Part shown: in pieces, positions 3,286-41,068 of the stretch
Layout: the number at the start of each line of letters is the position of its first letter
Position numbering within the stretch: the first letter of the stretch is position 1
Sequence record: MT446396.1
Length of the DNA stretch: 64,000 nucleotides
Direction: 5' to 3' (one strand)
Source: Escherichia virus TH22
Program-made: the position numbers and the translations under genes
Notes under the pieces: model-generated
What the model saw: only the letters and a program-made list of their open reading frames with translations
Databases searched by the model: none
What the model was told of the DNA's origin: nothing

Positions 3286-3286
3286 G

Positions 3287-13623: not shown

Positions 13624-13839
13624 ATGTTATACGACCCAAGTGGTAATTCTGAAAATGGTGTGATTGTTCTGGAGCCTGAGCATCCGACTGGTGAGGTGTA
13701 CCGTACCGTTGAAGTGTGTGAATGTAATTTCGTTGAAGGAAATACCGGTGGGATTTCCATTGAGCAAGATGATGATGTTATTTACCTGGATGCAAGCCAA
13801 GTAGAAGCTCTTTATAGTATTTTAAAACATAACCGTTAA
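13624..13839 (+). CDS. hypothetical protein
   Basis: ATG 13624 after SD GAGGAAA (track ORF begins 13549). Confidence 0.4.
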   Translation: MLYDPSGNSENGVIVLEPEHPTGEVYRTVEVCECNFVEGNTGGISIEQDDDVIYLDASQVEALYSILKHNR

Positions 13840-13851
13840 GAGGAAATTAAA

Positions 13852-14406
13852 ATGATTATTGAAAAATCTGGGTTGTTTGGTGACCTGACTGCCGATGTAA
13901 TTGATAATGCAATCGTGCTTAAACAAGAAGATGATACAGTCGTTTTGACCATTCAAGATATTCAGAACCTGTACAAGTTGTCTGTTATTGATGCAGAGCA
14001 GTATATTCGAACTCATAATCGTGTCTTTAAAATTAACGATGAAGTTGTGGCTTGGTTGTATCGAGGTGAAAATGGCTTTAATCTGGAAACCGAATGGGCT
14101 TGTTTATCCATTAAAAACCGTTCAGAATTTTTAGAGAAAATTTTTAAACTGTTCCAAGAAGAGTGTGTACCTGAGCTCGAATGGAAAATCCATGGTTGTG
14201 ATGCTATTATGCATTCAAGCGAAACCTTTGAAGGTGATGAAGAAGGTGATTATAATACTGAATTCAGTGTCCACCAACATCAAGGTCGCGATATGTTATC
14301 TATCATCCAGACCCACGATGGTGAAGCTGAAGTAGTATTCACTAAAGACGAATTAAAAGTTCTGGTAAAATACCTGAACACTGTTATCCCAACTATGAAC
14401 GCATAA
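13852..14406 (+). CDS. hypothetical acidic protein
   Basis: 184 aa, rich in D/E. Confidence 0.45.
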   Translation: MIIEKSGLFGDLTADVIDNAIVLKQEDDTVVLTIQDIQNLYKLSVIDAEQYIRTHNRVFKINDEVVAWLYRGENGFNLETEWACLSIKNRSEFLEKIFKLFQEECVPELEWKIHGCDAIMHSSETFEGDEEGDYNTEFSVHQHQGRDMLSIIQTHDGEAEVVFTKDELKVLVKYLNTVIPTMNA

Positions 14407-21771: not shown

Positions 21772-22088
21772 CTATTGAAAATGAATTAGATGTTGATGCT
21801 GTTTTAAGCGAAATCATTGAAGACCATGATGCGTTTACTGAATCATACGAGTTTGAATTTTCGGACTACCTGGTTCCGGTTGAATTAGGCGAATGGACAC
21901 AAACCGGCAAATACCAATATCGCCAGGCAATTTATTTCAGCAAAAAACATAATGTGCATGTGGCTGTAAACGAAACTCGTACCGGTTCTTATCATACCGA
22001 CTGGGACCATATGGTCCCGACTGTTGAACTGGTTAAGCTCCAAGAACGTGTCGTAACCCAAACTATCAGAGAATGGATTACGCTATAA
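21768..22088 (+). CDS. hypothetical protein
   Basis: ATGA overlap chain. Confidence 0.4.
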   Translation: MTIENELDVDAVLSEIIEDHDAFTESYEFEFSDYLVPVELGEWTQTGKYQYRQAIYFSKKHNVHVAVNETRTGSYHTDWDHMVPTVELVKLQERVVTQTIREWITL

Positions 22089-22205
22089 AACCATGGTATA
22101 CCGCTCGATGGGAAACCGTCGAGCCAGAGGAACCTGTTTACAACGATTCCGAAATAGATTATAATGAACCTTCAAACAATGATTTAATCGATATGGAGTT
22201 TGGAT

Positions 22206-22379
22206 ATGAGTACCAAAATTGAAATTGGCCGTCATAAAGGCCGCCTGATTGAAAAATCACTTTATGAACTGTCGGATTCCCGTAAGTTACCTGATGAAGA
22301 ATCTGCTTTAATTTTTGCCGCGGCGGATTATATCCATTGGCTTGAAGCTCAACTTCGCTTTGCTGATGAGGCCTTCTGA
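22206..22379 (+). CDS. hypothetical protein
   Basis: 57-aa ORF, stop overlaps next start. Confidence 0.3.
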   Translation: MSTKIEIGRHKGRLIEKSLYELSDSRKLPDEESALIFAAADYIHWLEAQLRFADEAF

Positions 22380-22681
22380 TGAATTTATTTGAATTTGAAG
22401 GTAAAACTGTTCGTATTACTGAAGAAGATGTTGACCATTATGTTGACTGGCCTGAATTAAACGGCAATCGCGGTTTTGAGTCAGGCGAGCTCTGTGAAGG
22501 TGCTGAAGTTAAAATCTTGAAGGTGGAGATTTCTCCATGGGGCAATCCTGAAATCATTGGCGTAACTGCTATCGAATTCAATGGTAAGGTATACGAATAC
22601 ACTAAAGAAATGTTTGAAGATACTAAAGCTTCATTCTGGTGTTTTTGGACTAACGATGATAATGAATTTGAGGTCGCATGA
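22379..22681 (+). CDS. hypothetical protein
   Basis: ATGA overlap chain. Confidence 0.4.
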   Translation: MNLFEFEGKTVRITEEDVDHYVDWPELNGNRGFESGELCEGAEVKILKVEISPWGNPEIIGVTAIEFNGKVYEYTKEMFEDTKASFWCFWTNDDNEFEVA

Positions 22682-22854
22682 AAACTGCATTAGTCTATAC
22701 CGAAAAGTTAAATGGTGTCAAGGTCTGGAAACTTCTTATTAAAGGAAGTCCTACCGACCAGTTTATGGCCACCTGTGTAGGATTGTATACTCGTCCTACT
22801 AAAAAGATGATTCGTCAATTTAAACGGTTACACCGCGCGTTTTATAAGATTTAA
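22678..22854 (+). CDS. hypothetical small basic protein (RPTK-x-IRQ tail family)
   Basis: 58 aa; C-terminus RPTKKMIRQFKRLHR shared with ORFs at 44599 and 45991. Confidence 0.35.
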   Translation: MKTALVYTEKLNGVKVWKLLIKGSPTDQFMATCVGLYTRPTKKMIRQFKRLHRAFYKI

Positions 22855-22889
22855 TAAATACCCTTATCTAATAATGGTAAGGGTTTATT

Positions 22890-23363
22890 ATGTTGTTGAC
22901 TGGCAAATTATACAAAGAAGAAAAACAAAAACTTTATGATGCACAAGCTGGTAAGTGTCCAATTTGCCACCGTGATTTGGACTCCGATGTTCAGGCCAAC
23001 CATCTTGACCATGACCACGAATTGAACGGGCCAAAAGCTGGTAAGGTTCGCGGGTTACTATGCAATCTGTGCAATGGGACAGAAGGACAAATGAAGCATA
23101 AGTTCAGCCGTTCGGGTCTGAAAAGTCGCGATGTTGACTACCTGGAATGGTTAGAGAGTTTGCTTGTCTATCTGAAATCTGATTATACCGAAAACAATAT
23201 TCACCCCAATTTTGTAACAGACAAAGCCAAAGAGTTCGGTCGTCTGGGGAAAGAAGAAATGATTCGGGAAATGCTTTTGAATGGTATGACTTATAATGAA
23301 TCTGACACCAAAACACAATTAATGGCTTCATTTAAGAAGCAGCTTAGAAAGAGTTTAAAATGA
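22890..23363 (+). CDS. 49: endonuclease VII (Holliday junction resolvase)
   Basis: 157 aa; MLLTGKLYKEEKQKLYDAQAGKCPICHRDLDSDVQANHLDHDHELNGPKAGKVRGLLCNLCN near-identical to T4 gp49. Confidence 0.95.
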   Translation: MLLTGKLYKEEKQKLYDAQAGKCPICHRDLDSDVQANHLDHDHELNGPKAGKVRGLLCNLCNGTEGQMKHKFSRSGLKSRDVDYLEWLESLLVYLKSDYTENNIHPNFVTDKAKEFGRLGKEEMIREMLLNGMTYNESDTKTQLMASFKKQLRKSLK

Positions 23364-25177
23364 CAATTGAAAACGAAATTGAAGGATTGATTCATAAAAC
23401 TAATAAAGACCTTTTAAACGAGAATGCTAATAAAGATTCTCGTGTTTTTCCAACTCAACGGGACCTTATGGCTGGTATTGTATCTAAACACATTGCCAAA
23501 AATATGGTCGCGTCTTTTATTATGAAAGCACATGAAAGTGGAATTATTCATTTCCATGATATTGATTATTCCCCTGCTCTTCCATTTACTAATTGCTGTT
23601 TAGTAGATTTAAAAGGAATGCTTGAGAACGGATTTAAGCTTGGTAATGCACAGATTGAAACTCCTAAATCAATCGGTGTTGCTACTGCAATTATGGCACA
23701 AATTACTGCACAGGTTGCTTCTCACCAATATGGCGGAACGACTTTTGCTAATGTAGACAAAGTATTTTCTCCTTATGTTAAACGTACATACGCAAAACAT
23801 ATTGAAGATGCAGAAAAATGGCAAATCACTGATGCATTGAATTATGCCCAATCTAAAACAGAAAAAGACGTATACGATGCATTCCAAGCTTATGAATATG
23901 AAGTAAATACGCTCTTTAGTTCAAATGGGCAAACGCCTTTTGTGACAATTACGTTTGGCACGGGAACTGACTGGACTGAACGAATGATTCAGAAAGCAAT
24001 TCTGAAAAATCGTATCAAAGGTCTTGGTCGCGATGGGATAACTCCTATTTTCCCTAAACTTGTTATGTTCGTTGAAGAAGGTGTTAATCTTTATAAAGAC
24101 GACCCGAACTATGATATTAAGCAGCTTGCTCTAGAGTGTGCAAGCAAAAGAATGTATCCTGATATTATTTCAGCTAAGAACAATAAAGCTATCACTGGTT
24201 CATCTATTCCTGTTTCTCCAATGGGTTGCCGTAGTTTCTTGGGCGTATGGAAAGATTCGACTGGTAATGAAATTCTTGATGGACGTAATAATCTTGGTGT
24301 TGTAACACTGAATCTTCCTCGCATTGCGTTAGATTCTTATATTGGAACACAGTTCAATGAACAGAAATTTATCGAATTGTTCAATGAGCGAATGGATTTG
24401 TGTTTTGAAGCTTTGATGTGTAGAATTAGTTCTTTAAAAGGAGTTAAAGCGACTGTTGCTCCTATTCTTTACCAAGAAGGTGCATTCGGGGTTCGTCTTA
24501 AACCTGATGATGATATAATTGAGTTATTTAAAAACGGTAGAAGTTCAGTGTCTTTGGGATACATTGGTATTCACGAATTGAATATTCTTGCCGGTCGTGA
24601 TATTGGGCAAGAAATTTTAACTAAAATGAATGCTCGTCTTAAGCAGTGGACTGAAAGAACCGGTTTTGCTTTTAGTTTGTATTCTACACCTGCTGAAAAC
24701 CTTTGTTATCGCTTCTGTAAACTTGATACTGAAAAATATGGAAGTGTAAAAGATGTTACCGATAAAGGATGGTACACTAACAGTTTCCACGTTTCAGTAG
24801 AAGAAAATATTACTCCGTTTGAAAAGATTTCTCGCGAAGCCCCATATCATTTCATTGCGACAGGTGGTCACATTTCTTATGTTGAACTTCCTGATATGAA
24901 AAATAACTTAAAAGGTCTTGAGGCTGTATGGGATTATGCCGCGCAACATTTAGATTATTTTGGTGTTAATATGCCAGTAGATAAATGTTTTACGTGTGGA
25001 AGTACCCATGAAATGACTCCTACTGAAAACGGATTTGTTTGTTCTATTTGTGGAGAAACTGACCCTAAAAAGATGAACACAATAAGAAGAACTTGCGGTT
25101 ATTTGGGAAATCCGAACGAACGTGGATTTAATCTCGGCAAAAATAAAGAAATCATGCATAGGGTTAAACACCAATGA
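23360..25177 (+). CDS. nrdD: anaerobic ribonucleoside-triphosphate reductase
   Basis: 605 aa; C-terminal glycyl-radical region RTCGYLGNP; uninterrupted (no intron). Confidence 0.95.
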   Translation: MTIENEIEGLIHKTNKDLLNENANKDSRVFPTQRDLMAGIVSKHIAKNMVASFIMKAHESGIIHFHDIDYSPALPFTNCCLVDLKGMLENGFKLGNAQIETPKSIGVATAIMAQITAQVASHQYGGTTFANVDKVFSPYVKRTYAKHIEDAEKWQITDALNYAQSKTEKDVYDAFQAYEYEVNTLFSSNGQTPFVTITFGTGTDWTERMIQKAILKNRIKGLGRDGITPIFPKLVMFVEEGVNLYKDDPNYDIKQLALECASKRMYPDIISAKNNKAITGSSIPVSPMGCRSFLGVWKDSTGNEILDGRNNLGVVTLNLPRIALDSYIGTQFNEQKFIELFNERMDLCFEALMCRISSLKGVKATVAPILYQEGAFGVRLKPDDDIIELFKNGRSSVSLGYIGIHELNILAGRDIGQEILTKMNARLKQWTERTGFAFSLYSTPAENLCYRFCKLDTEKYGSVKDVTDKGWYTNSFHVSVEENITPFEKISREAPYHFIATGGHISYVELPDMKNNLKGLEAVWDYAAQHLDYFGVNMPVDKCFTCGSTHEMTPTENGFVCSICGETDPKKMNTIRRTCGYLGNPNERGFNLGKNKEIMHRVKHQ

Positions 25178-25644
25178 ATTATGATAGATTTTATCCTTGT
25201 GATTTTGTGAATGGCCCTGGATGCAGGGTCGTTCTTTTCGTTACAGGTTGTTTGCATAAATGTGAAGGGTGTTATAATAAATCAACATGGAATGCTAGAA
25301 ATGGGGTTCCATTCACTGGTGAAACACTAGAACAATTAATTGAATGTTTGAATAATGATTATATAGAAGGATTAACTATAACTGGAGGAGACCCTCTCTA
25401 TCCTGATAACCGAGATGTTATTCACTCTGTGGTTCAAACTGTTAAAAATCTTTATCCAAATAAAAGCATTTGGATGTGGACAGGATATAAGTTTGAAGAT
25501 ATTAAACAACTAGAAATGCTTAAATATGTTGATGTTATTATTGATGGGAAGTATGAGAAAAATCTTCCGACCAAAAAACTGTGGCGAGGGTCAGATAATC
25601 AGCGACTTTGGTCAAATACCGATGGGGTGTGGAAACATGATTAA
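25174..25644 (+). CDS. nrdG: anaerobic RNR activating protein (radical SAM)
   Basis: 156 aa; CxxxCxxC radical-SAM-type cluster (CLHKCEGC); ATGA overlap with nrdD. Confidence 0.95.
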   Translation: MNYDRFYPCDFVNGPGCRVVLFVTGCLHKCEGCYNKSTWNARNGVPFTGETLEQLIECLNNDYIEGLTITGGDPLYPDNRDVIHSVVQTVKNLYPNKSIWMWTGYKFEDIKQLEMLKYVDVIIDGKYEKNLPTKKLWRGSDNQRLWSNTDGVWKHD

Positions 25645-25758
25645 ATTTAATTATATTATGGATACTATAAATGATATGATTTTTCATTTTGGTCCAGAAT
25701 TTTATTCGCAGTATAGTTTAGTGCTTATCAATGCTTGGTTAATCAATTAAGGGTAAAT

Positions 25759-25974
25759 ATGAATAAATTTCGTAATGCTGTTTCTGATATCCTGGCCAAT
25801 ATTACATTTGTCCTGTTTATTGTGTGCCTTTTAATCCTGGTTATCCCATTTGGATTGCTGTTTGTGATGATTGGTGCCCTGAGTACTGAAAAGGGCCTTG
25901 AAGGGTCTGAGTTCGACAAACGAATCCAGGCTGTCCATAGTGTTATTGCTAAAATGATGAAGGTGAAAGAATGA
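25759..25974 (+). CDS. hypothetical membrane protein
   Basis: TM segment ITFVLFIVCLLILVIPFGLLFVMIGAL. Confidence 0.4.
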   Translation: MNKFRNAVSDILANITFVLFIVCLLILVIPFGLLFVMIGALSTEKGLEGSEFDKRIQAVHSVIAKMMKVKE

Positions 25975-26270
25975 AACGTTTCGAAGAATATGTAGCTACT
26001 AATTGGACCGCATGGGACAAGTTCGGTGATGAATGGTACTTCCATGACTGTGACTTGGACCCGAAATTCTTTGCTGATAAAGAAGAAGACCTTAAAGATA
26101 TCTATGCTCTATCTGAGATTCATGGAATCAAACCGACGGTTTATTTCTCTTTCGATGACACAGGTTTCCTTATTCAGGTTTATGTCCCGTATGCAACCGC
26201 CAGCGATGAAGAAGTTATTAAAACCTGGAACTACCAAGGAGTGATTTCCTGTGGGCCAAAACTCGACTAA
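25971..26270 (+). CDS. hypothetical acidic protein
   Basis: ATGA overlap with upstream gene. Confidence 0.4.
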   Translation: MKRFEEYVATNWTAWDKFGDEWYFHDCDLDPKFFADKEEDLKDIYALSEIHGIKPTVYFSFDDTGFLIQVYVPYATASDEEVIKTWNYQGVISCGPKLD

Positions 26271-26568
26271 GATTGAAATCTATGGTATCCCCGAAGAAGT
26301 CGGTCGATGCCCTGGTTGTATGCACGTCAGGAGCCTTCTGGGCTCCTTAAACCTTCCTTATACATTCTATTCAGTCCTTAACAAACAAGGCTCTGAAATC
26401 GCTTATGACAGGCCTTTAATCGTGTCTTTGGCTAAGCGTGGTGGATATCCTACTCTTAACATTCGTTACCCGGTGATTTTTGTCAATGATGAAAAAATGA
26501 CCAATATTCCTGCCTTTAAAACAAAACTGATATCCCTGGGGTACGACCAGGACTTAATTGAAGATTAA
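26251..26568 (+). CDS. nrdH: glutaredoxin-like protein NrdH
   Basis: CPGC redox motif; GTG start with AAGGAG 9 nt upstream; position next to nrdG. Confidence 0.6.
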   Translation: MGQNSTKIEIYGIPEEVGRCPGCMHVRSLLGSLNLPYTFYSVLNKQGSEIAYDRPLIVSLAKRGGYPTLNIRYPVIFVNDEKMTNIPAFKTKLISLGYDQDLIED

Positions 26569-26812: not shown

Positions 26813-27063
26813 GCCTGAAATTACACTCAATGAAAAATATCATTACCCTTAATCTGGATGATGAGCGCCTAATTTTTCTCACCGTCACTGATAAGAATAT
26901 TGAAATTGCAAATGGTCCTAAGACTTATTGTTGCCCAGTGAAGAATTGGAAGCATGTAACCTTTTTGACCCTGTGCGACCGTCTGAAAGACCTTAAGTTG
27001 GATTTGGATGTCAAAGATATTCAGTACATTAAAAATCTTATTGGATACAAACTGTTGAGGTAA
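26809..27063 (+). CDS. hypothetical protein
   Basis: ATGA overlap with upstream gene. Confidence 0.4.
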   Translation: MSLKLHSMKNIITLNLDDERLIFLTVTDKNIEIANGPKTYCCPVKNWKHVTFLTLCDRLKDLKLDLDVKDIQYIKNLIGYKLLR

Positions 27064-27065
27064 CT

Positions 27066-27359
27066 ATGGGTAAAACTATTCGTCGTAAAGATTTGTCTTC
27101 TAAAGATTTTAATTGCATAGCTAGACGTAAAGCGCCTGATGGTGTATCAGAAGAAACTTTAAACGAAAATATCTTCCGTTCAGACAAATGGAAGCGTATG
27201 CGTGGCGTTGATTCAGAAGTCAAGAATGAGATGAATCGTCAACTGCGTAAAGAAGTTCGTCAGTTGAAAAAAGATGTATACGTTGAGGATGATTTGGATT
27301 ATAATACTTCTCATCTTGTTGCAAAACGTAAATCAAACGAGTGCTATCGTTACAGCTGA
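27066..27359 (+). CDS. hypothetical basic protein
   Basis: ORF rich in K/R. Confidence 0.4.
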   Translation: MGKTIRRKDLSSKDFNCIARRKAPDGVSEETLNENIFRSDKWKRMRGVDSEVKNEMNRQLRKEVRQLKKDVYVEDDLDYNTSHLVAKRKSNECYRYS

Positions 27360-27366
27360 GGAAAAC

Positions 27367-27498
27367 ATGAATATCAAACGAATGCTTTTTAAACAAGGAT
27401 TATACGCTTTAAATTCTGCTCCAAAAGGCGATACAACTAAGTGGTCAGTAAATGACTGGATTAAATTTATTGATGAAAACGGTAACTGGAAAATTTAA
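27367..27498 (+). CDS. hypothetical small protein
   Basis: 43-aa ORF, ATG 27367 with SD GAGGAAAA. Confidence 0.3.
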   Translation: MNIKRMLFKQGLYALNSAPKGDTTKWSVNDWIKFIDENGNWKI

Positions 27499-27696
27499 AT
27501 GAATCCTGAATCTAAATTATCACAGCGAATTGTTGAATCTCGTCGTCAGTTCTTTGAAAATATGATAGCTCAAGGTATTGATGATGAAGTTTTTCTGAAC
27601 TGGTTTTGGAATCTCTATTATTCAAAATGTGCAGGAACAATATTATTATCGGCCGCATTGATGTACGAAGGCTGGAAAGGCGCTAAAGCGCAGTAA
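27499..27696 (+). CDS. hypothetical protein
   Basis: Start overlaps upstream stop. Confidence 0.4.
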   Translation: MNPESKLSQRIVESRRQFFENMIAQGIDDEVFLNWFWNLYYSKCAGTILLSAALMYEGWKGAKAQ

Positions 27697-27768
27697 AAAC
27701 CAACGGGGTCATGGTATAATGACCCTAGGATAATAAAATTTTAATTTAATGAGACTGAGGAATATATC

Positions 27769-28095
27769 ATGACTGCATCTATCACTAACATCATCGCTAA
27801 TTTCGCATTTGCTAAAGTTAACACTCTGATGAAATCTGGTTTTGTTACTCCTGAGATTCTGGACCAGTGGGAAGGCGATGTACAGAAACTGATTATTGCA
27901 GAAGGTCAGACAATGGGCAAAGCGCGTATTCGTGAAAGCCTTGTCCAGTATATCCTGAATGAATTTGATGTAGTAGCGTTTGGTTTACCGCTTCTGCGTG
28001 AAAACAAAGAAGTTTCTGATAAAGCTATCAAGCGTATGAAGGCCCAGCGCAAGAAGGGGTTTGTTGACCTGAAAATTGTTAAGGGTGCGAAATGA
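27769..28095 (+). CDS. hypothetical protein
   Basis: Early promoter in inverted repeat GGGGTCATGGTATAATGACCC upstream. Confidence 0.45.
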   Translation: MTASITNIIANFAFAKVNTLMKSGFVTPEILDQWEGDVQKLIIAEGQTMGKARIRESLVQYILNEFDVVAFGLPLLRENKEVSDKAIKRMKAQRKKGFVDLKIVKGAK

Positions 28096-28349
28096 TGTGT
28101 CCTGCTATTGAATTACCTGAAGGTGTTGCGGTAATAGTATCTTACAAGTATGCTAATGGAATTCGCCGAGCTCATAAAATTAGTCACGGTTACTATTTAC
28201 AAAGGATTTTAAATTATTTCATTTCAATGGGATATGAATTCAGAATCTATCCTATGTGTACTAAAACCAAGTACACTAAAATCGATGCTTGGGAAGCTTG
28301 GGGGGAAGGTATGACATTAGACGAATTCCTGGACTACTTAAATGATTAA
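28092..28349 (+). CDS. hypothetical protein
   Basis: ATGA overlap with upstream gene. Confidence 0.4.
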   Translation: MMCPAIELPEGVAVIVSYKYANGIRRAHKISHGYYLQRILNYFISMGYEFRIYPMCTKTKYTKIDAWEAWGEGMTLDEFLDYLND

Positions 28350-28608
28350 AATTAAACTCTCTCATTATGAGAAAAACCTGGAAATGATTGCTATGAAAGA
28401 AGAACTCCTGAATGATGTACGTCTGGCAGGTTATGCTGTTTGTGTCAATGATGTTGGTGTCCTCCAGATTGAAGGTGACCACTTTATTATTGAATATGAA
28501 TTTCATCAGTATTGGTTGTATGCTAAAGATGAAGTAGGTGGGATTGATTATGTTGACCAGTTTGATAAGCTTGACGATGTTTTAGAAGCTGCTCAGATGG
28601 TGTACTGA
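28342..28608 (+). CDS. hypothetical protein
   Basis: Overlapping start/stop chain. Confidence 0.4.
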   Translation: MIKIKLSHYEKNLEMIAMKEELLNDVRLAGYAVCVNDVGVLQIEGDHFIIEYEFHQYWLYAKDEVGGIDYVDQFDKLDDVLEAAQMVY

Positions 28609-28874
28609 TGCACATCAATCATACAATGATATCCGTCCAGGACCTGGGAACGTTTTGGGTGGATGAATTTATGAAAATAACATTCTTCCCGCACGCAGAA
28701 GGGTACGGCTCTTGGGAGTCCCATATTAGTATGCTGAATGAAGGGCAATACCGCAACGAACATGACCGCCTGATGGAATTCATTAGCGATGCCGAGGTTA
28801 TCCCTTATATTGACATTCATGAATTTAAGGCAATTATGGAGAAGGTCTTTCAGGCTTACTGTTTACTTCGCTAA
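28608..28874 (+). CDS. hypothetical protein
   Basis: Overlapping start/stop chain. Confidence 0.4.
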   Translation: MHINHTMISVQDLGTFWVDEFMKITFFPHAEGYGSWESHISMLNEGQYRNEHDRLMEFISDAEVIPYIDIHEFKAIMEKVFQAYCLLR

Positions 28875-28922
28875 TGCTTTGTATTAAGGATGATATAATA
28901 TTCATATACTAAGCGAGGCGAT

Positions 28923-29480
28923 ATGAACGAAATTAAATTAACCAAGAATAACTATGTAAATAATAAAGAGCTTCTGAAAGCTATTTCGGAGTGGAAACAG
29001 AAGCTGAATGCGAACACCGACCCGAATAAAATTATTCGCCAGAACGACGTTATTGGTCTGGCAATTATGCTTATAGCCGAAGGTCTTAGCAAACGTTTCA
29101 ACTTCTCCGGATATACCCAATCCTGGAAGCAAGAAATGATTGCAGACGGAATTGAGGCCGCAATAAAAGGTCTTCACAACTTCGACGAAACAAAATACGA
29201 TAATCCACATGCTTACATAACAATGGCTTGCTTCAATGCTTTCGTTCAGCGTATCAAAAAAGAACGTAAAGAAATGGCAAAGAAATATAGCTACTTCGTC
29301 CATAACGTGTATGATTCACGTGATGACGATATGGTGGCTCTGGCTGATGAAACATTTATCCAGGACATCTATGACAAAATGACACAGTACGAATCCTCTT
29401 TAGTTAAAGCGCCAGGGTCTGATAAGAGCGCCAAAGATAAAGAAGGTGATTTGGATTTTTTATATGGAACATCAATTTGA
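28923..29480 (+). CDS. 55: late-transcription sigma factor gp55
   Basis: 185 aa; [12 protein letters not shown]...[36 protein letters not shown]...[16 protein letters not shown] near-identical to T4 gp55. Confidence 0.95.
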
Positions 29481-29697
29481 TATTACCGATTTTTTAGATA
29501 AAATCGAGGAAGACTTTACTGCGCTCCCATATTTCATTAAACTTTATCTGCGAGACATAAAAGGTCTTCCAATTGATATCGACCCTTTAAACGTCCGGAA
29601 TCTGGAATTTACTTCACCGGATAATAACGTTGATTACCGTTATCATGTAGATAATGCTAATCTATATTTTACAATTGAGTTAACTCCCAAGGATTAA
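29464..29697 (+). CDS. hypothetical protein
   Basis: ATG 29464 overlapping end of gene 55 (track ORF starts at GTG 29446). Confidence 0.4.
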
Positions 29698-29698
29698 T

Positions 29699-30010
29699 AT
29701 GCAAGCTCCAGATATTTCTCAACTGACCGATAAGCAGATTGAAGAAGCACAGGAACGTCTCGAAGAAGCGAACGCACTCGAAGCACAGAGTCAAGCGGCA
29801 AAGATTCTGAAAAAGAATGCTCGTGAAATTGCACGACTGAATAAGCATGCTCAAGGGGCAGTGCTGGAAAACAATTTTGAAGCATACAAATATGCTTTAG
29901 TTAAACTGCGTGGAATTTACCGCCAACCAGTTACGGAAGACCTGATTAAGTTGATGTGGGAAACTACTCGCAAACAAATTTGGGAAATCGTAAATGGCAT
30001 TAGTAAATAA
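29699..30010 (+). CDS. hypothetical protein
   Basis: Start immediately after upstream stop. Confidence 0.4.
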   Translation: MQAPDISQLTDKQIEEAQERLEEANALEAQSQAAKILKKNAREIARLNKHAQGAVLENNFEAYKYALVKLRGIYRQPVTEDLIKLMWETTRKQIWEIVNGISK

Positions 30011-30194
30011 ACCTTTTAAACGGCTTCTTGTTGGAGCCGCTTTCAGACTTCGCTCATATGGTAATATCTGTATCAAGCAGACTGAAACCGAATATAAAAT
30101 GGTTGGGCAGTATTCCGATGAAATTTTTCGGATTGAGCCTGTAGCCAAGGTTTGGGTGGATTCACATCAACTTAAGAAGTGGTGGCAACGATGA
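29994..30194 (+). CDS. hypothetical protein
   Basis: ORF overlapping upstream gene end. Confidence 0.3.
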   Translation: MALVNKPFKRLLVGAAFRLRSYGNICIKQTETEYKMVGQYSDEIFRIEPVAKVWVDSHQLKKWWQR

Positions 30195-30511
30195 TAACAT
30201 GGACTGCCGGTTAATGAATGACGAATACGAAAAAGTTTAAGAGGTGTATTATGACTATTGATGATGTAAATATTCTTACTTCCGACGAATTAAAACGATT
30301 GGGTAATATATTTCAAGACGAACATCCTGATTTTTAAGAGGTCATATGAATGACGAATTCGACGGATTTTGATAAGATTAAATCTGATAAAAATGAGATG
30401 ATACTTCAATTTGAAGCCGCTCGTATTAAAGCAGAAAATGAAGGTACTATTACCCATAAGAAAATCAAGTTCAAGTCTAATCGCGAACCTCTGTATGGTG
30501 TATTAATTGGA

Positions 30512-30540
30512 AAGGAAGCCTAGTGCTTCCTTTTTGCTTT
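30512..30540 (+). terminator. rho-independent terminator
   Basis: GGAAGC-CTAGT-GCTTCC then TTTTTGCTTT. Confidence 0.6.
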
Positions 30541-30719
30541 ATATTCGGGATGATAAAATGAACCAACTGAGGAGATTATATGGAATTATTTTTAGGATAT
30601 GTTGTGTTATTCATGGCATTCTACACATTCACACGAGCTTGTTGGATAGGATTCTTTTCTACTCCTGACGGGTTCATTTCAATAATTTTATTTTGCACTG
30701 CGATAACGGCGCTTGGCTT

Positions 30720-31739
30720 ATGAAAATTTTAAATTTAGGTGATTGGCACTTGGGTGTCAAAGCTGACGACCCATGGGCTCAAAACATTCAACGTGATGGT
30801 ATTTTACAGGCGATTGCATATTCCAAAGCAAATGGAATTAAAGTCTGGATTCAATATGGTGATATTTTTGACGTCCGTAAGGCTGTAACGCATAAGACAA
30901 TGGAATTCAGCCGCGAGATTATGGAACTCCTTCGTGAAGCAGGAATTACTATGCACACGATAGTCGGGAACCATGACATGAATCTGAAGAATAAGATTCA
31001 TCCTAATGCTATCACCGAACTCCTGAATAAGTATGACCATGTTAAAATCTACGACAAGCCAACGACTGTTGATTTTGACGGTTGTCAGATTGATATGATT
31101 CCATGGATGTGTGACGAGAACGCGACTGACATTCATCAACACATCAAAACTTCTGGTGCCGAATATTGCATCGGTCACTGGGAATTAACCGGGTTTTATT
31201 TCTATAAAGGATTGAAATCCCACGGGCTTGAGCCTGATTTCCTTAAGAAGTACAAGCAAGTTTGGTCTGGGCACTTCCATACCATTTCGGAAGCTGCGAA
31301 CGTTAAGTACATAGGAACGCCATGGACATTAACAGCAGGTGATGAGAATGACCCGCGCGGATTCTGGGAATTTGATACAGAAACCGAAGAGATGAAATTT
31401 ATTCCGAATGAAACCACTTGGCATCGGAAGATTTTCTATCCAAACGAAACTATTAACTACGACGACTTCAAAGACTTATCAGTCCGTGTTATTGTAGAAA
31501 AAGTCGATAAAGACCTGACCAAGTTCGAATCTGAATTAGAAAAGCGTGTACATGAATTGCGTGTTGTCAATAAGGTTGATAACAGTGTTGATACGACTGA
31601 CTCCGAAGAAGAGTTAGACATAAAACGCTTAACTGATATGATGGCAGAATATATTGATGCATTACCTGACACCAATGAGAAAGAATCAAAAGCTCTTAAA
31701 GCATTGGCCAACAAATTATATCTTGAGGTGCAACCGTGA
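30720..31739 (+). CDS. 47: recombination endonuclease subunit gp47 (Mre11-like)
   Basis: 339 aa; MKILNLGDWHLGVKADD and phosphoesterase motifs GDIFD, GNHD match T4 gp47. Confidence 0.95.
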   Translation: MKILNLGDWHLGVKADDPWAQNIQRDGILQAIAYSKANGIKVWIQYGDIFDVRKAVTHKTMEFSREIMELLREAGITMHTIVGNHDMNLKNKIHPNAITELLNKYDHVKIYDKPTTVDFDGCQIDMIPWMCDENATDIHQHIKTSGAEYCIGHWELTGFYFYKGLKSHGLEPDFLKKYKQVWSGHFHTISEAANVKYIGTPWTLTAGDENDPRGFWEFDTETEEMKFIPNETTWHRKIFYPNETINYDDFKDLSVRVIVEKVDKDLTKFESELEKRVHELRVVNKVDNSVDTTDSEEELDIKRLTDMMAEYIDALPDTNEKESKALKALANKLYLEVQP

Positions 31740-31999
31740 GACTTTATGATTTTAATGAAGCGGGGCTTGAACATATCCGCGAATGTGATGTGGTTGACGA
31801 CGATAATCAACCGAATACTATTAAGTATTGGTTTGAAGCTATCACTGACCGGGAAACCGGTCAACTTATCAAAGTCTATGTAGTCACCGATTGGGCCGTA
31901 GAATTTAGTTTTAATGTAATGGAAGATGATACTCCAGAGACATTAATTCATATGGCTGAATCATGCATCAAGGATGCTTATTACGATGAAGACTTTTGA
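31736..31999 (+). CDS. hypothetical protein
   Basis: ORF between genes 47 and 46. Confidence 0.45.
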   Translation: MRLYDFNEAGLEHIRECDVVDDDNQPNTIKYWFEAITDRETGQLIKVYVVTDWAVEFSFNVMEDDTPETLIHMAESCIKDAYYDEDF

Positions 32000-32192
32000 A
32001 TTTAATCTTGATGATGAATTTGTAGCAAATATTGATTATACCGAAGAAGATTCTAGATATGTCGGAATAATTTATATCACATCAAAAACGGCGCAGGGAG
32101 TGGTTTGCATGGCTGAATTTGATGAATGCTTTTTAGATTATGATGATATGATAGAATGGTCTAAAAGATACATTAAAAGGAATCTTTTGTGA
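31986..32192 (+). CDS. hypothetical protein
   Basis: ORF between genes 47 and 46; start may be 31974. Confidence 0.4.
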   Translation: MKTFEFNLDDEFVANIDYTEEDSRYVGIIYITSKTAQGVVCMAEFDECFLDYDDMIEWSKRYIKRNLL

Positions 32193-33871
32193 AGACTTTT
32201 AAGCTTAAGAAAGTTATCTATAAAAATATTATGTCGGTTGGTGCTCAACCGATTACTGTTGAACTGGATAAAGTCCAGAAAACTCTTGTAACTGGCAAGA
32301 ATGGCGCAGGTAAATCTACGTTCCTTGAAGCGGTTACCTTTGCTATGTTCGGTAAGCCTTTCCGTGATGTAAAGAAAGGTCAGCTGATTAACTCGAGCAA
32401 CAAAAAAGATATGCTCGTTGAATTGTGGATGGAATATGATGGAAAAGAATACTATATCAAACGCGGGCAAAAACCCAATGTTTTTGAAATCTCTTGTGGC
32501 GGTAAACGTCTTGATGAATCTGCCAGCAGTAAAGACTTCCAAGCGGAATTTGAACAGCTTATCGGAATGTCCTACGCAAGCTTCAAACAAATTGTCGTAC
32601 TCGGCACAGCTGGATATACCCCTTTTATGGGCCTATCCACTCCTGCAAGAAGAAAACTCGTCGAAGACCTGTTAGAGGTTTCTGTACTGGCCGATATGGA
32701 TAAGCTGAACAAATCTCTTATCCGCGAAGTCAATAGTCAAATCCAGGTAATGGATGTGCAGCATGATGGTATCGTTCAACAGATTAAAATCTATCAGGAC
32801 AACGAAGACCGTCAAAGAAAATTGTCAGGTGATAATCTGTTGCGGCTGCAAACGATGTATGATGAACTTGCTACAGAAGCACGTGGAATCAAGGCAACTA
32901 TCGAAGAAGCAACAACAAGACTGACCGAGATAATTTTGGGAGAAGACCCCGAGCACGAACTCACAAAGTTAAAGCAGGAATCATTCCTGATTAAATCGAA
33001 GATTGACGATTACCGAAAGGTTGTTGGTCTGTACGAGAAGGGCGGTTGTTGTCAGACTTGTGCCAGTCAGTTGCATCCAGGAGACCCTATTGTCGCCAGG
33101 ATTGAGTCAAAGATTGAAGAATGTAATGCATCAGCTGATAAGCATAAAGCTCGCCAGAATGCTGTTCAAGAGCAATTTGATGCGTATACCAAGGCAAGAC
33201 AAAACCAGCGTACAATAGCTCAAGACATTCAAACTAAGAAACAAACCTTAGTCCAGACTGTCGAAAAAGCTAAAAAGGTTAAAGCATTAATCGAGCAAGC
33301 TAAGTCAGAATTTATTGACCATGCAGCAGACATTAAAATGCTTCAAGACCAGCTTGATAAAATAGTCAAACAGAAATCCGACCTTGTGATGGAAAAATAT
33401 CAACGTGGTATCCTAACGGATATGCTGAAAGATTCTGGTATTAAGGGCGCGATTATTAAGAAATATATTCCTATCTTTAATAAGCAGATAAACGCTTATC
33501 TTAAAGTTATGGAAGCTGATTATAGCTTTACGTTAGATGAAGAGTTCAACGAAACGATTAAATCTCGTGGTCGTGAAGACTTTAGTTATGCATCATTTAG
33601 CCAGGGTGAAAAAGCTCGTATAGATATTGCATTGCTGTTTACATGGCGCGATATTGCTGCGAAAGTATCTGGTGTTAATATTAACACATTGATTCTGGAT
33701 GAAGTTTTTGACTCGGCCACTGACGTAGAGGGTGTTAAAGCAATTGCTACCATCCTGAACAAATTGGAAGACACCAACATCTTTATCATCAGCCACCGAG
33801 ACCATGACCCGGAAGCATACGGGCAACATCTCCAGATGAAAAAAGTTGGTCGATTCACTGTTATGGAATAA
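32189..33871 (+). CDS. 46: recombination endonuclease subunit gp46 (Rad50-like ATPase)
   Basis: 560 aa; Walker A GKNGAGKST, central coiled coil with CxxC hook (GGCCQTC), C-terminal signature and Walker B ILDEVFD. Confidence 0.95.
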   Translation: MKTFKLKKVIYKNIMSVGAQPITVELDKVQKTLVTGKNGAGKSTFLEAVTFAMFGKPFRDVKKGQLINSSNKKDMLVELWMEYDGKEYYIKRGQKPNVFEISCGGKRLDESASSKDFQAEFEQLIGMSYASFKQIVVLGTAGYTPFMGLSTPARRKLVEDLLEVSVLADMDKLNKSLIREVNSQIQVMDVQHDGIVQQIKIYQDNEDRQRKLSGDNLLRLQTMYDELATEARGIKATIEEATTRLTEIILGEDPEHELTKLKQESFLIKSKIDDYRKVVGLYEKGGCCQTCASQLHPGDPIVARIESKIEECNASADKHKARQNAVQEQFDAYTKARQNQRTIAQDIQTKKQTLVQTVEKAKKVKALIEQAKSEFIDHAADIKMLQDQLDKIVKQKSDLVMEKYQRGILTDMLKDSGIKGAIIKKYIPIFNKQINAYLKVMEADYSFTLDEEFNETIKSRGREDFSYASFSQGEKARIDIALLFTWRDIAAKVSGVNINTLILDEVFDSATDVEGVKAIATILNKLEDTNIFIISHRDHDPEAYGQHLQMKKVGRFTVME

Positions 33872-37299: not shown

Positions 37300-40014
37300 A
37301 TGCAAGAATTTTATTTAACTATCGAACAAATCGGTGACAACCTACTCGAACGATACATTGACAAGAATGGTCATGAACGTGTTCGTGAAATCCCCTATGC
37401 CCCGTGCCTGTTTATGCATGCCCGCGAAGACCAAGCTGCAAAATATACAGACATCTATAATAAAGGTTGCGTGAAAAAAGAATTCGATTCCATGCGTGAT
37501 GCATCCCAGTGGATGAAGCGAATGAATGACATGGGTCTCGAAGCTATGGGTATGGATGACTTTAAACTCGCATACTTGTCCGACCGTTACCCGCACGAAA
37601 TCAAATACGATTCAAGTAAAATCCGTGTGGCTAACTTCGATATCGAGGTGACATCTCCTGATGGGTTCCCTGAGCCGTCTGAAGCACGTCACCCTATTGA
37701 TGCCCTGACGCACTATGATTCGATAGACGATAAATTCTATGTCTTTGACCTTTTGGGCTCACCATACGCCACTGTGGAGCAATGGTCTATCGATATTGCT
37801 GCTAAGCTGCAAGAAGATGGCGGTGATGAAGTCCCTGAAGAAATCCTGGAAAAAATTGTTTATATGGCTTTCGATTCAGAAGAAGAAATGCTCCAACAGT
37901 ATTTGGTATTCTGGAACGAGAAAACTCCGGTTATGTTAACTGGTTGGAACATCGAGAAGTTTGATATTCCATATATCTACAACCGCCTTAAAAATGTATT
38001 TGGTGAAGCTACGGCAAAACGTTTGAGTCCACATCGTCGTACAAAAGTTAAGGTCATTAACAACGGTTTCGGTGAAGAACAAGAAATCGTTCAGATTCTG
38101 GGTATCTCTGTTCTGGATTATCTGGACCTGTATAAAAAGTTCAGCTTCACAAACCAACCGTCTTATTCGTTGGATTATGTTGCGGAATCTGAGCTGGGTG
38201 TTGGTAAACTCCCGTATGATGGCCCGATTTCTAAACTGCGCGAATCAAATCACCAACGGTATATTTCTTATAACATCATCGATGTTTATCGTGTTGTACA
38301 GATTGACCGTAAGCGTCAGTTTATTAACCTTAGCCAGTCAATGGGTTATTATGCAAAAATGCAGATTCAGTCTGTATTCAGCCCAATCAAAACTTGGGAT
38401 GCGATTATCTTTAACAGCCTGAAGACTCAAAATAAAGTCATTCCGGAAACCAAATCACATGTTCGTCAATCGTTCCCAGGTGCATTTGTTAAGGAACCGA
38501 TTCCGAACGCATACAAATACGTTATGAGCTGTGACTTAACATCTCTGTATCCGAGCATCATCCGACAGATTAACATTAGTCCAGAAACGATTGCCGGGTC
38601 ATTTACACCAGCGCCAATGTACGAATACATCGCAGGAACTGCTGACCGTCCATCTGATACATTTAGTTGTGCTCCAAACGGTATGATGTATTTTAAAGAT
38701 GTTGCGGGTATTATTCCAACAGAAGTCACCAAGGTGTTTAATCAGCGTAAAGAGCACAAAGGTTATATGCTTGCGGCTCAACGTAATGGTGAACTGATTA
38801 AGGAAGCCCTGCGTAATCCAGGAACTGGTACAACCGAGCCTGAAGTTGATTATCGTTATGACTTTGATGATAATATGAAAACAACCTTGCATGGTCTGAA
38901 TCAAACAGTTCTGAATGGTATGTTGTACAAAGCGCAGATGGAAGAAGTTGCAGGCATGACCGCACAGATTAACCGTAAACTGCTTATCAACAGTTGTTAT
39001 GGCGCTCTGGGTAATATCTGGTTCCGTTACTTTGACCTGCGAAATGCAACCGCGATTACATCTTTCGGACAACTTACATTGCAGTGGATTGAGCGTAAAG
39101 TTAACGAATATTTTGATAGTGTTTGTGGTACAAGTGGTGAAACATATGTATTCTATGGCGATACTGACTCCATTTATATCCAGTGCGATAACCTGATTAA
39201 AAAGGTTGGTGGCGAATCTAAATTCCGCGATACAAACCACCTGGTTGACTTCATGGACAAGTTTGCGAAAGACCGTCTGGAACCAGCAATCGATAAAGCT
39301 TTCCGTGAGCTGGCTGAATACATGAACAACAAACAGCACCTTATGTTTATGGACCGTGAAGCGATTGCATGTCCTCCGTTGGGTTCTAAAGGTGTTGGTG
39401 GATTCTGGACGGCGAAGAAGCGTTATGCTCTGAACGTGTACGATATGGAAGGCACCCGATATGCTGTTCCGAAACTGAAAATCATGGGTCTGGAAACTCA
39501 AAAGTCGAGTACGCCAAAAGCATGTCAGAAAGCCCTGAAAGAATGTATCCGTCGCATGCTGCAAGAAGGTGAAGAATCTCTGCAGACATACTTCAAGGAA
39601 TTCAATAAGGAATTTAATGAGCTTAACTACATGACAATCGCAGGTGTATCATCGGTTAACAACATCCAGAAATATAATGAGGGTGGTTTCCCTGGATTTA
39701 AGTGTCCGGCTCATATCAAAGGCGTGCTCGCTTACATGCGTGCAACCAAAGGGTTGAAGACTGTTCCACAAATCATGGAAGGGGAAAAGGTGTATGTGCT
39801 TCCTCTTAAAGTTGGTAACCCGTTTGGCGAAACTGTGATTGCATGGCCATCAGGGATTGAACTCCCGATTGAAATTCGTGACCAGGTTCTGCAGTGGATG
39901 GACTACAACACACTGTTCCAGAAGACTTTTGTCAAACCGTTAACGGGGTTCTCTGAAGCAGCAAAGGTTGATTACGAAAAGAAAGCAACTCTTTTTGATA
40001 TGTTTGACTTTTAA
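37300..40014 (+). CDS. 43: DNA polymerase gp43 (family B)
   Basis: 904 aa; exonuclease motifs (FDIEV) and polymerase motifs (SLYPSII, YGDTDS) aligned with T4 gp43. Confidence 0.97.
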   Translation: MQEFYLTIEQIGDNLLERYIDKNGHERVREIPYAPCLFMHAREDQAAKYTDIYNKGCVKKEFDSMRDASQWMKRMNDMGLEAMGMDDFKLAYLSDRYPHEIKYDSSKIRVANFDIEVTSPDGFPEPSEARHPIDALTHYDSIDDKFYVFDLLGSPYATVEQWSIDIAAKLQEDGGDEVPEEILEKIVYMAFDSEEEMLQQYLVFWNEKTPVMLTGWNIEKFDIPYIYNRLKNVFGEATAKRLSPHRRTKVKVINNGFGEEQEIVQILGISVLDYLDLYKKFSFTNQPSYSLDYVAESELGVGKLPYDGPISKLRESNHQRYISYNIIDVYRVVQIDRKRQFINLSQSMGYYAKMQIQSVFSPIKTWDAIIFNSLKTQNKVIPETKSHVRQSFPGAFVKEPIPNAYKYVMSCDLTSLYPSIIRQINISPETIAGSFTPAPMYEYIAGTADRPSDTFSCAPNGMMYFKDVAGIIPTEVTKVFNQRKEHKGYMLAAQRNGELIKEALRNPGTGTTEPEVDYRYDFDDNMKTTLHGLNQTVLNGMLYKAQMEEVAGMTAQINRKLLINSCYGALGNIWFRYFDLRNATAITSFGQLTLQWIERKVNEYFDSVCGTSGETYVFYGDTDSIYIQCDNLIKKVGGESKFRDTNHLVDFMDKFAKDRLEPAIDKAFRELAEYMNNKQHLMFMDREAIACPPLGSKGVGGFWTAKKRYALNVYDMEGTRYAVPKLKIMGLETQKSSTPKACQKALKECIRRMLQEGEESLQTYFKEFNKEFNELNYMTIAGVSSVNNIQKYNEGGFPGFKCPAHIKGVLAYMRATKGLKTVPQIMEGEKVYVLPLKVGNPFGETVIAWPSGIELPIEIRDQVLQWMDYNTLFQKTFVKPLTGFSEAAKVDYEKKATLFDMFDF

Positions 40015-40086: not shown

Positions 40087-40329
40087 ATGGAAACATTAAT
40101 TGCAGGTACTGTTGTTCTTGGTGCTGGTTCTTTCTTCCTGGCTGCACTGGCATATTTTCTGCCGTGGATTATCGCGCTACTGCGAGGAACCAAAAGTAAT
40201 TGCGGAATCTTCTTTGTTAACCTCCTGTTAGGTTGGACAATGGTCGGGTGGTTTATTGCATTTATCTGGGCACTCGTTGCTGAACGTAAATCAAACGCAC
40301 AAGTAATTATCATCAAGGAAACCAAATGA
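40087..40329 (+). CDS. imm: superinfection immunity protein Imm-like
   Basis: 80-aa two-TM protein with LLGWTMVGWFIAFIWAL segment; directly downstream of gene 43 as in T4. Confidence 0.7.
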   Translation: METLIAGTVVLGAGSFFLAALAYFLPWIIALLRGTKSNCGIFFVNLLLGWTMVGWFIAFIWALVAERKSNAQVIIIKETK

Positions 40330-40469
40330 AGATGATTACAATTATTGTACTGATTGCATTTTTTGGTATGTCAATCTATTGGGCAATAATGACTCCACAT
40401 ATGATTCCAACTTTAATTTTGGGTTGGGTATTTTTGGGGCTCCAAGCCCGCTATGAATGTTTTAATTGA
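40326..40469 (+). CDS. hypothetical small membrane protein
   Basis: 47-aa hydrophobic ORF, ATGA overlap with imm. Confidence 0.4.
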   Translation: MKMITIIVLIAFFGMSIYWAIMTPHMIPTLILGWVFLGLQARYECFN

Positions 40470-40479
40470 GGAAAATACA

Positions 40480-40983
40480 ATGAAAAAGTTAGCTATCGCA
40501 GCTGTTATACTGTTATCTGGTTGTGCTTACCAGGGTGATGTAGTTAATGCCAGTGAGATTGGTAAAGCGCGAATTGCTGCAGACCGTCAGGTGCATAATG
40601 GTTCCTTTGATTTCAAAGGTGGTACTGGACTTATCTACAAACGCGACAACAATCAATGTGGAAATAACTGCGCGAAATATGCTCAACAAGAAATTGAGTA
40701 CAAACGCGAGCAAGCTGCGAAGCATGATGAAGTAATCGCTAAATTAGAAGCAGAAACTAAGCGACAAAATGACTTGGATACTGTTAACCAGATTTCACAG
40801 GTCTGTATGTCATACATCAATATGCAGATAAACATCATGCGCGCGGAAGCTTATCAGGCAGCAGAGGCTGGTTCTCCAAAAGCTAATGAGTATCGCGATA
40901 TGTATCAGCGTTCTGCTCAAAACCGTCTGAGCTATATTAATAAATGTGTAGCTAAAGAGAAAGCACGCCAAGGTATTAACTAA
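40480..40983 (+). CDS. putative lipoprotein
   Basis: Signal peptide with lipobox (MKKLAIAAVILLSGC); SD GAGGAAAAT. Confidence 0.55.
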   Translation: MKKLAIAAVILLSGCAYQGDVVNASEIGKARIAADRQVHNGSFDFKGGTGLIYKRDNNQCGNNCAKYAQQEIEYKREQAAKHDEVIAKLEAETKRQNDLDTVNQISQVCMSYINMQINIMRAEAYQAAEAGSPKANEYRDMYQRSAQNRLSYINKCVAKEKARQGIN

Positions 40984-41068
40984 CATTAATTGCTCTAAAA
41001 ATACAGTGATATAATTATCCTATCTTAAACCTGTGAGAAAAATATAATGGTGCCTATGGAAAAAATGA

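Follow-up and report, generated by a model that had tools for sequence, protein, structure and literature searches.

Organisation of the cytosine modification loci

The 64,000-nucleotide stretch of Escherichia virus TH22 (record MT446396.1), referred to here as the window, to the whole of which coordinates apply unless another source is named, contains gene 56, encoding a dCTPase/dUTPase of the phage T4 type, and none of the T4 genes for glucosylated 5-hydroxymethylcytosine (hmC). The analysis below concerns the loci where T4 carries those genes, and the thymidylate synthase gene td, whose product, Td, has an aspartate in place of Asn177 of E. coli ThyA and is a probable source of 5-methylcytosine (5mC) in the phage DNA. 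The window belongs to Gaprivervirus, a genus of T4-like coliphages (VR7/SP18 group, Tevenvirinae), of which VR7 is given as the type member. Over positions 27000-33000, identity is 100% with Escherichia phages UPEC07 and TH55 and 93-97% with VR20, VR7, VR26 and SP18; the G+C content of the window is 39.8%. The complete genomes of UPEC07 (170,004 bp) and TH55 (170,389 bp), assembled from fetched loci, were searched alongside the window.

In the T4 record, the α-glucosyltransferase locus has the order 47, 47.1, a-gt, mobB, a-gt.2 through a-gt.5, 55, in agreement with the placement of a-gt between genes 47 and 55 by the original prediction, which was made from the sequence of the window. The statement that this interval holds only small open reading frames (ORFs) in TH22 was also borne out: there are six of them, five being homologs of T4 a-gt.5, a-gt.4, a-gt.3, a-gt.2 and 47.1 according to tblastn, and a short gap lies at the site of a-gt and mobB (Table 1).

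The second locus has the order uvsX, segA, b-gt, 42, imm in the T4 record, so that the β-glucosyltransferase gene and gene 42 indeed lie between imm and uvsX, as the prediction had it. The corresponding interval of the window contains, again as described there, a small membrane ORF of 47 amino acids (aa) and a lipoprotein ORF of 176 aa, and nothing else; a Pfam scan of the lipoprotein gave no match. The right border of the interval, uvsX, is annotated as such in VR7 and as a RecA-like recombination protein in UPEC07, whose product is 79% identical to T4 UvsX. At a third locus, the T4 record has the order 61, dam, 56, and dam is absent from this site in JS98, as it is from the spacer between 61 and 56 in the window.

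Comparison with phage JS98, a member of the sister genus Dhakavirus, indicates what else is absent between imm and uvsX. In JS98, a 4.5-kb block running from orf42 to orf38, with the annotation RB69-like, comes after orf44 and orf43. The blastn breakpoints place JS98 positions 21930-26504 opposite only ~230 bp of the window (about 40777-41004), comprising the 3' part of the 176-aa ORF and the following sequence. Since the module corresponds to so short a segment and the flanking homologs of orf43 and orf44 are kept, the whole module is absent, not a single gene. JS98 orf39 is a distant relative of gp42 (24.5% identity, E 3e-8) and carries the changes L143E, D169N and N177D, a signature of the 5-hydroxy-dCMP synthase of the RB69 gp48 type, whose pathway is said to reach Dhakaviruses (bioRxiv 10.1101/2025.06.16.659550, PMC13326640; dCMP, deoxycytidine monophosphate). 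Thus, the arabinosyl-5-hydroxycytosine module of RB69 and Dhakavirus and the Gaprivervirus interval share the same imm-uvsX locus, with orf43 and orf44 homologs flanking it in both genera, but the 4.5 kb of JS98 orf38-42, including the synthase gene, are absent from Gaprivervirus.

Table 1. Coordinates of the window features discussed in the text
Feature	Position	Strand	Basis or remark
Tk	10952-11524		named as possible thymidine (dT) supplier
Gene 55, late sigma factor, left border	28923-29480	+	185-aa ORF; annotated gp55 in UPEC07, VR7, JS98
a-gt.5 homolog	29464-29697	+	tblastn with T4 a-gt.5: 39% identity, E 7e-13
a-gt.4 homolog	29699-30010	+	tblastn with T4 a-gt.4: 43% identity, E 7e-23
a-gt.3 homolog	29994-30194	+	tblastn with T4 a-gt.3: 43% identity, E 3e-14
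39-aa ORF, no T4 match	30218-30337	+	ORF list; hypothetical in UPEC07 annotation
a-gt.2 homolog	30350-30523	+	tblastn with T4 a-gt.2: 52% identity, E 1e-18
Gap at T4 a-gt and mobB site	30524-30579		56 bp (computed); T4 gene order
47.1 homolog, small membrane protein	30580-30723	+	tblastn with T4 gp47.1: 78% identity, E 8e-21
Gene 47, recombination nuclease subunit, right border	30720-31739	+	ORF list; annotated in UPEC07, VR7
imm	40087-40329	+	tblastn with T4 Imm: 52% identity, E 3e-24
47-aa hydrophobic ORF (VR7 '42.1', JS98 orf44-like)	40326-40469	+	tblastn with JS98 orf44: 59% identity, E 3e-11
176-aa lipoprotein, JS98 orf43 homolog	40453-40983	+	lipobox LSGC; 52% identity to JS98 orf43
uvsX	41069-42247	+	392-aa ORF; 98.5% identity to VR7 UvsX
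61-56 spacer, T4 dam site	47627-48027		~400 bp; only a small minus-strand hydrophobic ORF, 47745-47972
Gene 56, dCTPase/dUTPase	48028-48546	+	68% identity to T4 gp56 over 172 aa, E 1e-78; Pfam dUTPase_2

Searches for modification genes

The tblastn searches of the window and of the complete UPEC07 and TH55 genomes with T4 gp42, a-gt, b-gt and Dam found nothing better than E 0.65 (best E 0.7 for gp42 and 0.8-3 for the two glucosyltransferases), and tblastn with JS98 orf38-42 likewise gave no hit in any of the three sequences. No ThyA-family ORF was found in the window, where the best E across all searches for missing genes was 0.2-0.8. A hidden Markov model (HMM) of the ThyA family, built from E. 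coli ThyA, T4-type Td, T4 gp42 and JS98 orf39 and run unfiltered (hmmsearch --max) against all stop-to-stop ORFs of UPEC07, recovered exactly one member in the whole genome, the annotated td (E 1.6e-132; runner-up E 0.08); a motif scan of the same genome for ThyX matched only a 48-aa antisense fragment and no real gene. These searches show that both the T4 pathway (gp42 with the α- and β-glucosyltransferases) and the RB69/Dhakavirus pathway (a 5-hydroxy-dCMP synthase with enzymes of sugar-nucleotide metabolism and a transferase) are missing from the lineage; the absence of known cytosine-modification enzymes across Gaprivervirus has already been published (PMC8056088, PMC12115623).

One of the two explanations offered by the original prediction was that gene 42 and the glucosyltransferase genes had moved elsewhere in the genome. 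T4-like genomes are mosaic, and TH22 conforms to this: the region 14140-64000 is ~99% identical to UPEC07 and TH55, whereas positions 1-14000 match them at only 90-93%, with no better match for this part among the phage collection records, and by these alignments the TH22 source genome is a mosaic. Relocation is nonetheless refuted for the nearest complete genomes, UPEC07 and TH55, by tblastn in both and by the HMM search in UPEC07, and the literature reports absence of these genes across the genus (PMC8056088, PMC12115623); the probability left to it is negligible.

A search for a new, genus-specific enzyme yielded no candidate. The parts of the UPEC07 genome that show no similarity to JS98 at the protein level hold only homing endonucleases, nrdD/nrdG and ORFs of at most 164 aa. 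Two Pfam scans covered 19 proteins, namely 17 uncharacterised ORFs, gp56 and Td, and the 17 ORFs gave no methyltransferase, transferase, glycosyltransferase or oxygenase match. Two adjacent ORFs of the window, 2326-3285 (319 aa) and 3345-4031 (228 aa), bear the labels 'nucleotidyltransferase' and 'phytanoyl-CoA dioxygenase' in phage EAWsc9; the Pfam scans gave DUF7277 and DUF7275 for the 319-aa protein, or nothing, and the pair was dropped as a source of Gaprivervirus-specific chemistry because it has homologs in both JS98 and RB69.

The Asp177 signature of thymidylate synthase

The only ThyA-family gene, td, is located next to frd in UPEC07, outside the window. An alignment of Td with E. coli ThyA, T4-type Td, JS98 Td, T4 gp42 and JS98 orf39 revealed that Gaprivervirus Td reads QRSVDVFLGLPF-D-IGSYG, against ...GLPF-N-IASYA in E. 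coli ThyA, T4-type Td and JS98 Td; the changed site is Asn177 of E. coli ThyA (Asn229 of the L. casei enzyme), replaced by Asp. The other active-site residues compared are all canonical, namely R21, E58, W80, Y94, R126, R127, A142, L143, C146 and H147, as well as Q165, R166, S167, D169, G173, H207 and Y209; the catalytic residues and the arginines that bind phosphate are thus kept. Second-shell changes, conserved across the genus, are A148L, F149L, A179G and A182G. L. casei N229D and E. coli N177D, reportedly the classic engineered dCMP methylases (ascribed to Liu and Santi and to Hardy and Nalivaika, both said to date from 1992), carry this one substitution as well, their active sites being canonical in all other respects; Gaprivervirus Td differs from them in being natural and in having the second-shell changes.

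Published specificity rules make the consequences of this replacement predictable: Asp177 shifts the preference to dCMP; a bulky hydrophobic residue at position 143 goes with a methyl product, and Asp or Glu at this position with a hydroxymethyl product; D169N is the mark of 5-hydroxy enzymes (bioRxiv 10.1101/2025.06.16.659550, PMC13326640). Asp177 has been used to predict enzymes converting dCMP to 5-methyl-dCMP (5mdCMP), and five of seven such candidates, together with the Xp12 enzyme, gave 5mdCMP when co-expressed with T4 gp1 (bioRxiv 10.1101/2024.12.05.627091). By these rules, Td with Asp177 is predicted to be a dCMP 5-methyltransferase.

Among the best 120 Td homologs, Asp is found in each of the four Gaprivervirus clusters (P0001-P0004, at least 86% identity), to which SP18 and Yersinia phage P8 belong, among others, and Asn occupies this position in 115 clusters from phages of the hmC type, all of them at most 70% identical. 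Td of the Gaprivervirus type was found in 32 phage records at an identity of at least 85.7%, every one of them a Gaprivervirus (VR7, VR20, VR25, VR26 and SP18 included), and the next record of the phage collection is at 69.9%; the Asp177 motif was read directly in VR7, TH40 and UPEC07. The ratio of nonsynonymous to synonymous substitution rates (dN/dS) of td is 0.03 between UPEC07 and VR7 and 0.12 in the comparison with TH40, which has an 86% allele; because these values are low, td is, by this measure, functional and constrained by purifying selection.

The fifth protein with Asp177 among the 120, P0060 (292 aa), is encoded by an uncultured T4-like contig (Logan SRR24146912, 5417 bp; locus L019, 3953-4831), where its neighbours are frd.2, frd.1 and dihydrofolate reductase. 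It is 67-69% identical to the Gaprivervirus proteins, shares ~20 Gaprivervirus-specific residues and appears to represent a deeper branch within the Asp-type Td clade.

Acinetobacter phages 133 and ZZ1 likewise have no known modification enzymes and keep DenB, Alc and the dCTPase (PMC8056088). Their Td proteins (L022, 18517-19464, and L023, 11347-12279) are only ~53% identical to Gaprivervirus Td, and both have Asp177 and keep L143, C146, H147 and D169, with Met at position 165, as in gp42; judging by these residues, the two phages may also make 5mC DNA. Phage RB49, the DNA of which is reported to contain ordinary cytosine, has a Td with Asn177, and its genus has no alc or denB (PMC12115623). 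In three lineages out of three, Asp177 thus accompanies the genotype that keeps the host-DNA-discrimination genes without a known modification enzyme, and neither control class has it.

gp56, host-DNA discrimination genes and the state of VR7 DNA

That the window keeps a close gp56 homolog, another claim of the original prediction, holds for an intact gene (Table 1). The protein is 85.5% identical to its JS98 counterpart, which places it among the proteins best conserved between the two phages, and its dN/dS against JS98 is 0.15. There are two alleles of gene 56 in the genus, since the window copy is only 71.5% identical to that of VR7 (L001, 15791-16309). In VR7, and not in the window, the homing endonuclease gene segF adjoins gene 56, which suggests endonuclease-driven exchange of gene 56 alleles within the genus.

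The UPEC07 annotation includes denB, ndd, denA, alc, cd, frd and the gene for gp1, and alc, denA and denB, for which the prediction proposed a full-genome search, were all found there as intact genes. The comparison of UPEC07 with VR7 gave dN/dS values of 0.10 (alc), 0.05 (denA) and 0.01 (cd), which point to purifying selection on alc and denA. Cd is 87% identical to T4 Cd, and gp1 of UPEC07 is 47% identical to T4 gp1 over 241 aa and 47% identical to JS98 gp1, with 47-51% across all three pairs, T4 versus JS98 included. DenB is an outlier: the Gaprivervirus proteins are 46-48% identical to those of T4 and JS98, while T4 and JS98 DenB share 71%. Ser176 of DenB, which we take to be important for deoxycytidine specificity, is conserved in Gaprivervirus. 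The divergence of DenB would fit a retuned discrimination of cytosine.

MotA is an outlier as well (UPEC07 locus L002, 12498-13106; denB, L002, 7161-7796), with 33-40% identity to T4 and JS98, versus 51% between T4 and JS98; core proteins typically have 70-85%. Both DenB and MotA are proteins that read DNA carrying the modified base. Just upstream of alc (L002, 39279-39848 in UPEC07), a 77-aa ORF (39098-39331) repeats approximately the first 34 residues of Alc; it is 50% identical to JS98 Alc, is conserved in VR7 (VR7ORF243c, L020, 7011-7244) and looks like a partial N-terminal duplication of Alc.

In T4 biology, cytosine DNA is not compatible with activity of the dCTPase, endonuclease IV and Alc, and the Gaprivervirus genotype, with dCTPase, Alc, DenB, DenA and Ndd kept in the absence of a known enzyme for a non-canonical base, was described as a puzzle in 2021 and 2025 (PMC8056088, PMC12115623). 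Data on the DNA itself come from VR7. According to Gordeeva et al. (PMC6326788), VR7 DNA was digested with Eco32I, MboI, EcoRII, SalI and Csp6I, T4 beta-glucosyltransferase being either included or omitted; the conclusion given there (Suppl. Fig. S4) is that the DNA of VR5 and T4 is glycosylated, that of T4147 hydroxymethylated, and that VR7 has 'modified cytosines'. The same paper describes VR7 DNA as unglycosylated and VR7 as fully restricted by BREX. Since VR7 was not called hydroxymethylated in an assay meant to reveal hmC, we infer that its modified base is not hmC. No literature linking VR7 to methylcytosine was found, the BREX paper being the only one with restriction data.

The other explanation offered by the original prediction was unmodified cytosine with gp56 acting mainly as a dUTPase; Alc and DenB would then have an altered or lost cytosine-directed activity. 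In phages RB49 and RB43, cytosine DNA does coexist with gp56 and denA (PMC8056088), the low identity of DenB could be read in the same way, and no hydroxymethylase was found in UPEC07 or TH55. This explanation is contradicted, however, by the 'modified cytosines' of VR7 in the conclusion of PMC6326788, by the intact alc, denB, denA and ndd genes and by the change of Asn177 to Asp in the sole ThyA homolog; the conservation of gp56 relative to JS98 (86%), the purifying selection on alc and denA indicated by dN/dS, and the retained Ser176 of DenB also speak against it. The cytosine-DNA type represented by Krischvirus and RB49, with Asn177 in Td and without alc and denB (PMC12115623), is not matched by Gaprivervirus, which has Asp177 and keeps both genes. 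Ordinary cytosine in the DNA of these phages is therefore very improbable. Of the original interpretation, the part stating that no hmC or glucosyl-hmC is made and that gp56 is kept stands, in line with the absence of gene 42 and glycosyltransferase genes from the full genomes of UPEC07 and TH55; both explanations offered for it, unmodified cytosine and relocation, are unlikely.

Predicted 5-methylcytosine pathway

The gene absence was already published as an open puzzle; its best-supported explanation is modification by Td with Asp177: the phage DNA probably carries 5mC, made by Td in the manner of phage Xp12, with gp56 retained because it would feed Td with dCMP. In the proposed scheme, gp56 would hydrolyse dCTP and dCDP to dCMP, keeping dCTP out of the pool, and Td would methylate dCMP with methylene-tetrahydrofolate, the resulting dihydrofolate being recycled by Frd. 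The kinase gp1 and the host nucleoside diphosphate kinase would convert 5mdCMP to the triphosphate, which the DNA polymerase gp43 would incorporate, so that virion DNA would contain 5mC instead of cytosine, with no sugar attached. Thymidine monophosphate (dTMP) could come from deamination by Cd of part of the 5-methyl-deoxycytidine nucleotide pool, for which Xp12 provides a precedent, from the host ThyA or from salvage by Tk. With its own cytosines marked by 5mC, the phage could keep Alc, DenB, DenA and Ndd for use against cytosine-containing host DNA; the 5mC would shield phage DNA from Alc, DenB and DenA of the phage itself.

Several points weigh against this scheme. The td gene lies outside the window, and its presence in the TH22 genome is deduced from 32 of 32 related genomes. 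The phage would have no dedicated enzyme converting deoxyuridine monophosphate to dTMP, and the deaminase route is suggested by precedent. Fully 5mC-substituted DNA should be a substrate of McrBC, and the strain BL21(DE3) is, we believe, McrBC-positive. According to PMC6326788, VR7 was propagated on BL21(DE3), and the base is described there only as 'modified cytosines'. The whole UPEC07 genome contains homologs of arn.2 and arn.3, and none was found there of arn, the T4 gene that encodes the McrBC inhibitor; given growth on BL21(DE3) and no arn homolog, some other anti-McrBC function would be needed. Finally, two of the seven Asp177 homologs gave no 5mdCMP, so the rule is not absolute (bioRxiv 10.1101/2024.12.05.627091).

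The last point, the growth of VR7 on BL21(DE3), which is unexpected for 5mC DNA, and the wording 'modified' in PMC6326788 would all be compatible with a different modification of the cytosines, introduced by an unrecognised enzyme among the many small ORFs without a Pfam match, or by Td with Asp177 itself, if it makes a non-methyl product, possibly processed later on the DNA; an unknown non-canonical base has been proposed for Gaprivervirus (PMC8056088, PMC12115623). The survey of UPEC07-specific DNA and the Pfam scans described above left little room for such an enzyme, and Td keeps Leu143 and Asp169, the change of which marks hydroxymethyl and hydroxy products, respectively. Another modification of this kind appears unlikely, but deserves more weight than ordinary cytosine.

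Extending the 5mC scheme beyond Gaprivervirus leads to a bolder proposal, to which we would assign even chances. Several independent T4-like branches (Gaprivervirus; phages 133 and ZZ1; the uncultured lineage of P0060) may have made a dCMP methylase out of the one thymidylate synthase that they have; they would run the entire T4 machinery of host-DNA discrimination on 5mC in place of hmC and make thymidine by deaminating the methylated cytosine nucleotide, and an inhibitor, perhaps co-injected, would shield their fully methylated DNA from McrBC-type restriction. No literature tying Td with Asp177 to the modification of Gaprivervirus DNA was found in a search that was incomplete, and priority cannot be claimed.

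Comparison with known systems

The closest precedent is provided by Xp12 and PaMx74, phages of Xanthomonas and Pseudomonas, in which cytosine is fully replaced by 5mC through a dCMP methyltransferase of the ThyA family. The likeness to Xp12 includes a single thymidylate synthase homolog with Asp177, a deaminase encoded in the genome and able to supply dT, and modification before replication, at the nucleotide level, giving a base without sugar, which in Gaprivervirus is predicted. The absence of a second thymidylate synthase from Xp12 has been attributed to the supply of dT by the deaminase (bioRxiv 10.1101/2024.12.05.627091). The traits of the Xp12 type found in Gaprivervirus are Asp177, a hydrophobic residue at position 143, the catalytic Cys146 and Asp169, together with one ThyA ORF, no ThyX and the presence of cd. 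Unlike Xp12, Gaprivervirus is a group of T4-like E. coli myoviruses, whose 5mC is predicted from genes; Td is near T4 Td, at an identity of about 65-70% and with 1TIS as the best solved structure, and not near the Xp12 enzyme, and it is combined with the T4 toolkit of gp56, gp1, Alc, DenA, DenB and Ndd.

This toolkit is also what Gaprivervirus has in common with the glucosyl-hmC pathway of T4, along with the gene order around 55-47, imm-uvsX and 61-56. The differences lie in the lack of gp42, a-gt, b-gt, dam and arn, and in the lack of a ThyA paralog with Asp177 and Asp143; in Gaprivervirus, it is Td itself that carries Asp177, with Leu143.

A signature of one residue, in a gene that had been annotated before, offers a concrete answer to the published Gaprivervirus puzzle, and one that reaches the Acinetobacter phages. 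The puzzle has a practical side, as no transduction-risk advice for phage therapy was given by the authors because no enzyme for a non-canonical base is known (PMC8056088, PMC12115623). If the 5mC scheme is true, easily grown coliphages would be a source of fully 5mC-substituted DNA and would provide a natural N177D thymidylate synthase for comparison with the engineered ones, as well as a system for studying how Alc and endonuclease IV tell cytosine from 5mC and how phages escape McrBC. The label 'thymidylate synthase' in T4-like genomes would then require a check of position 177 before metabolism or modification is deduced from it.

Anaerobic ribonucleotide reductase genes

In VR7 and JS98, gene 49 directly follows 55.8, and nrdD and nrdG are missing from this position; in the window, the two genes of the anaerobic ribonucleotide reductase (nrdD, 605 aa, and nrdG, 156 aa) occupy positions 23360-25644, and both are also present in UPEC07.

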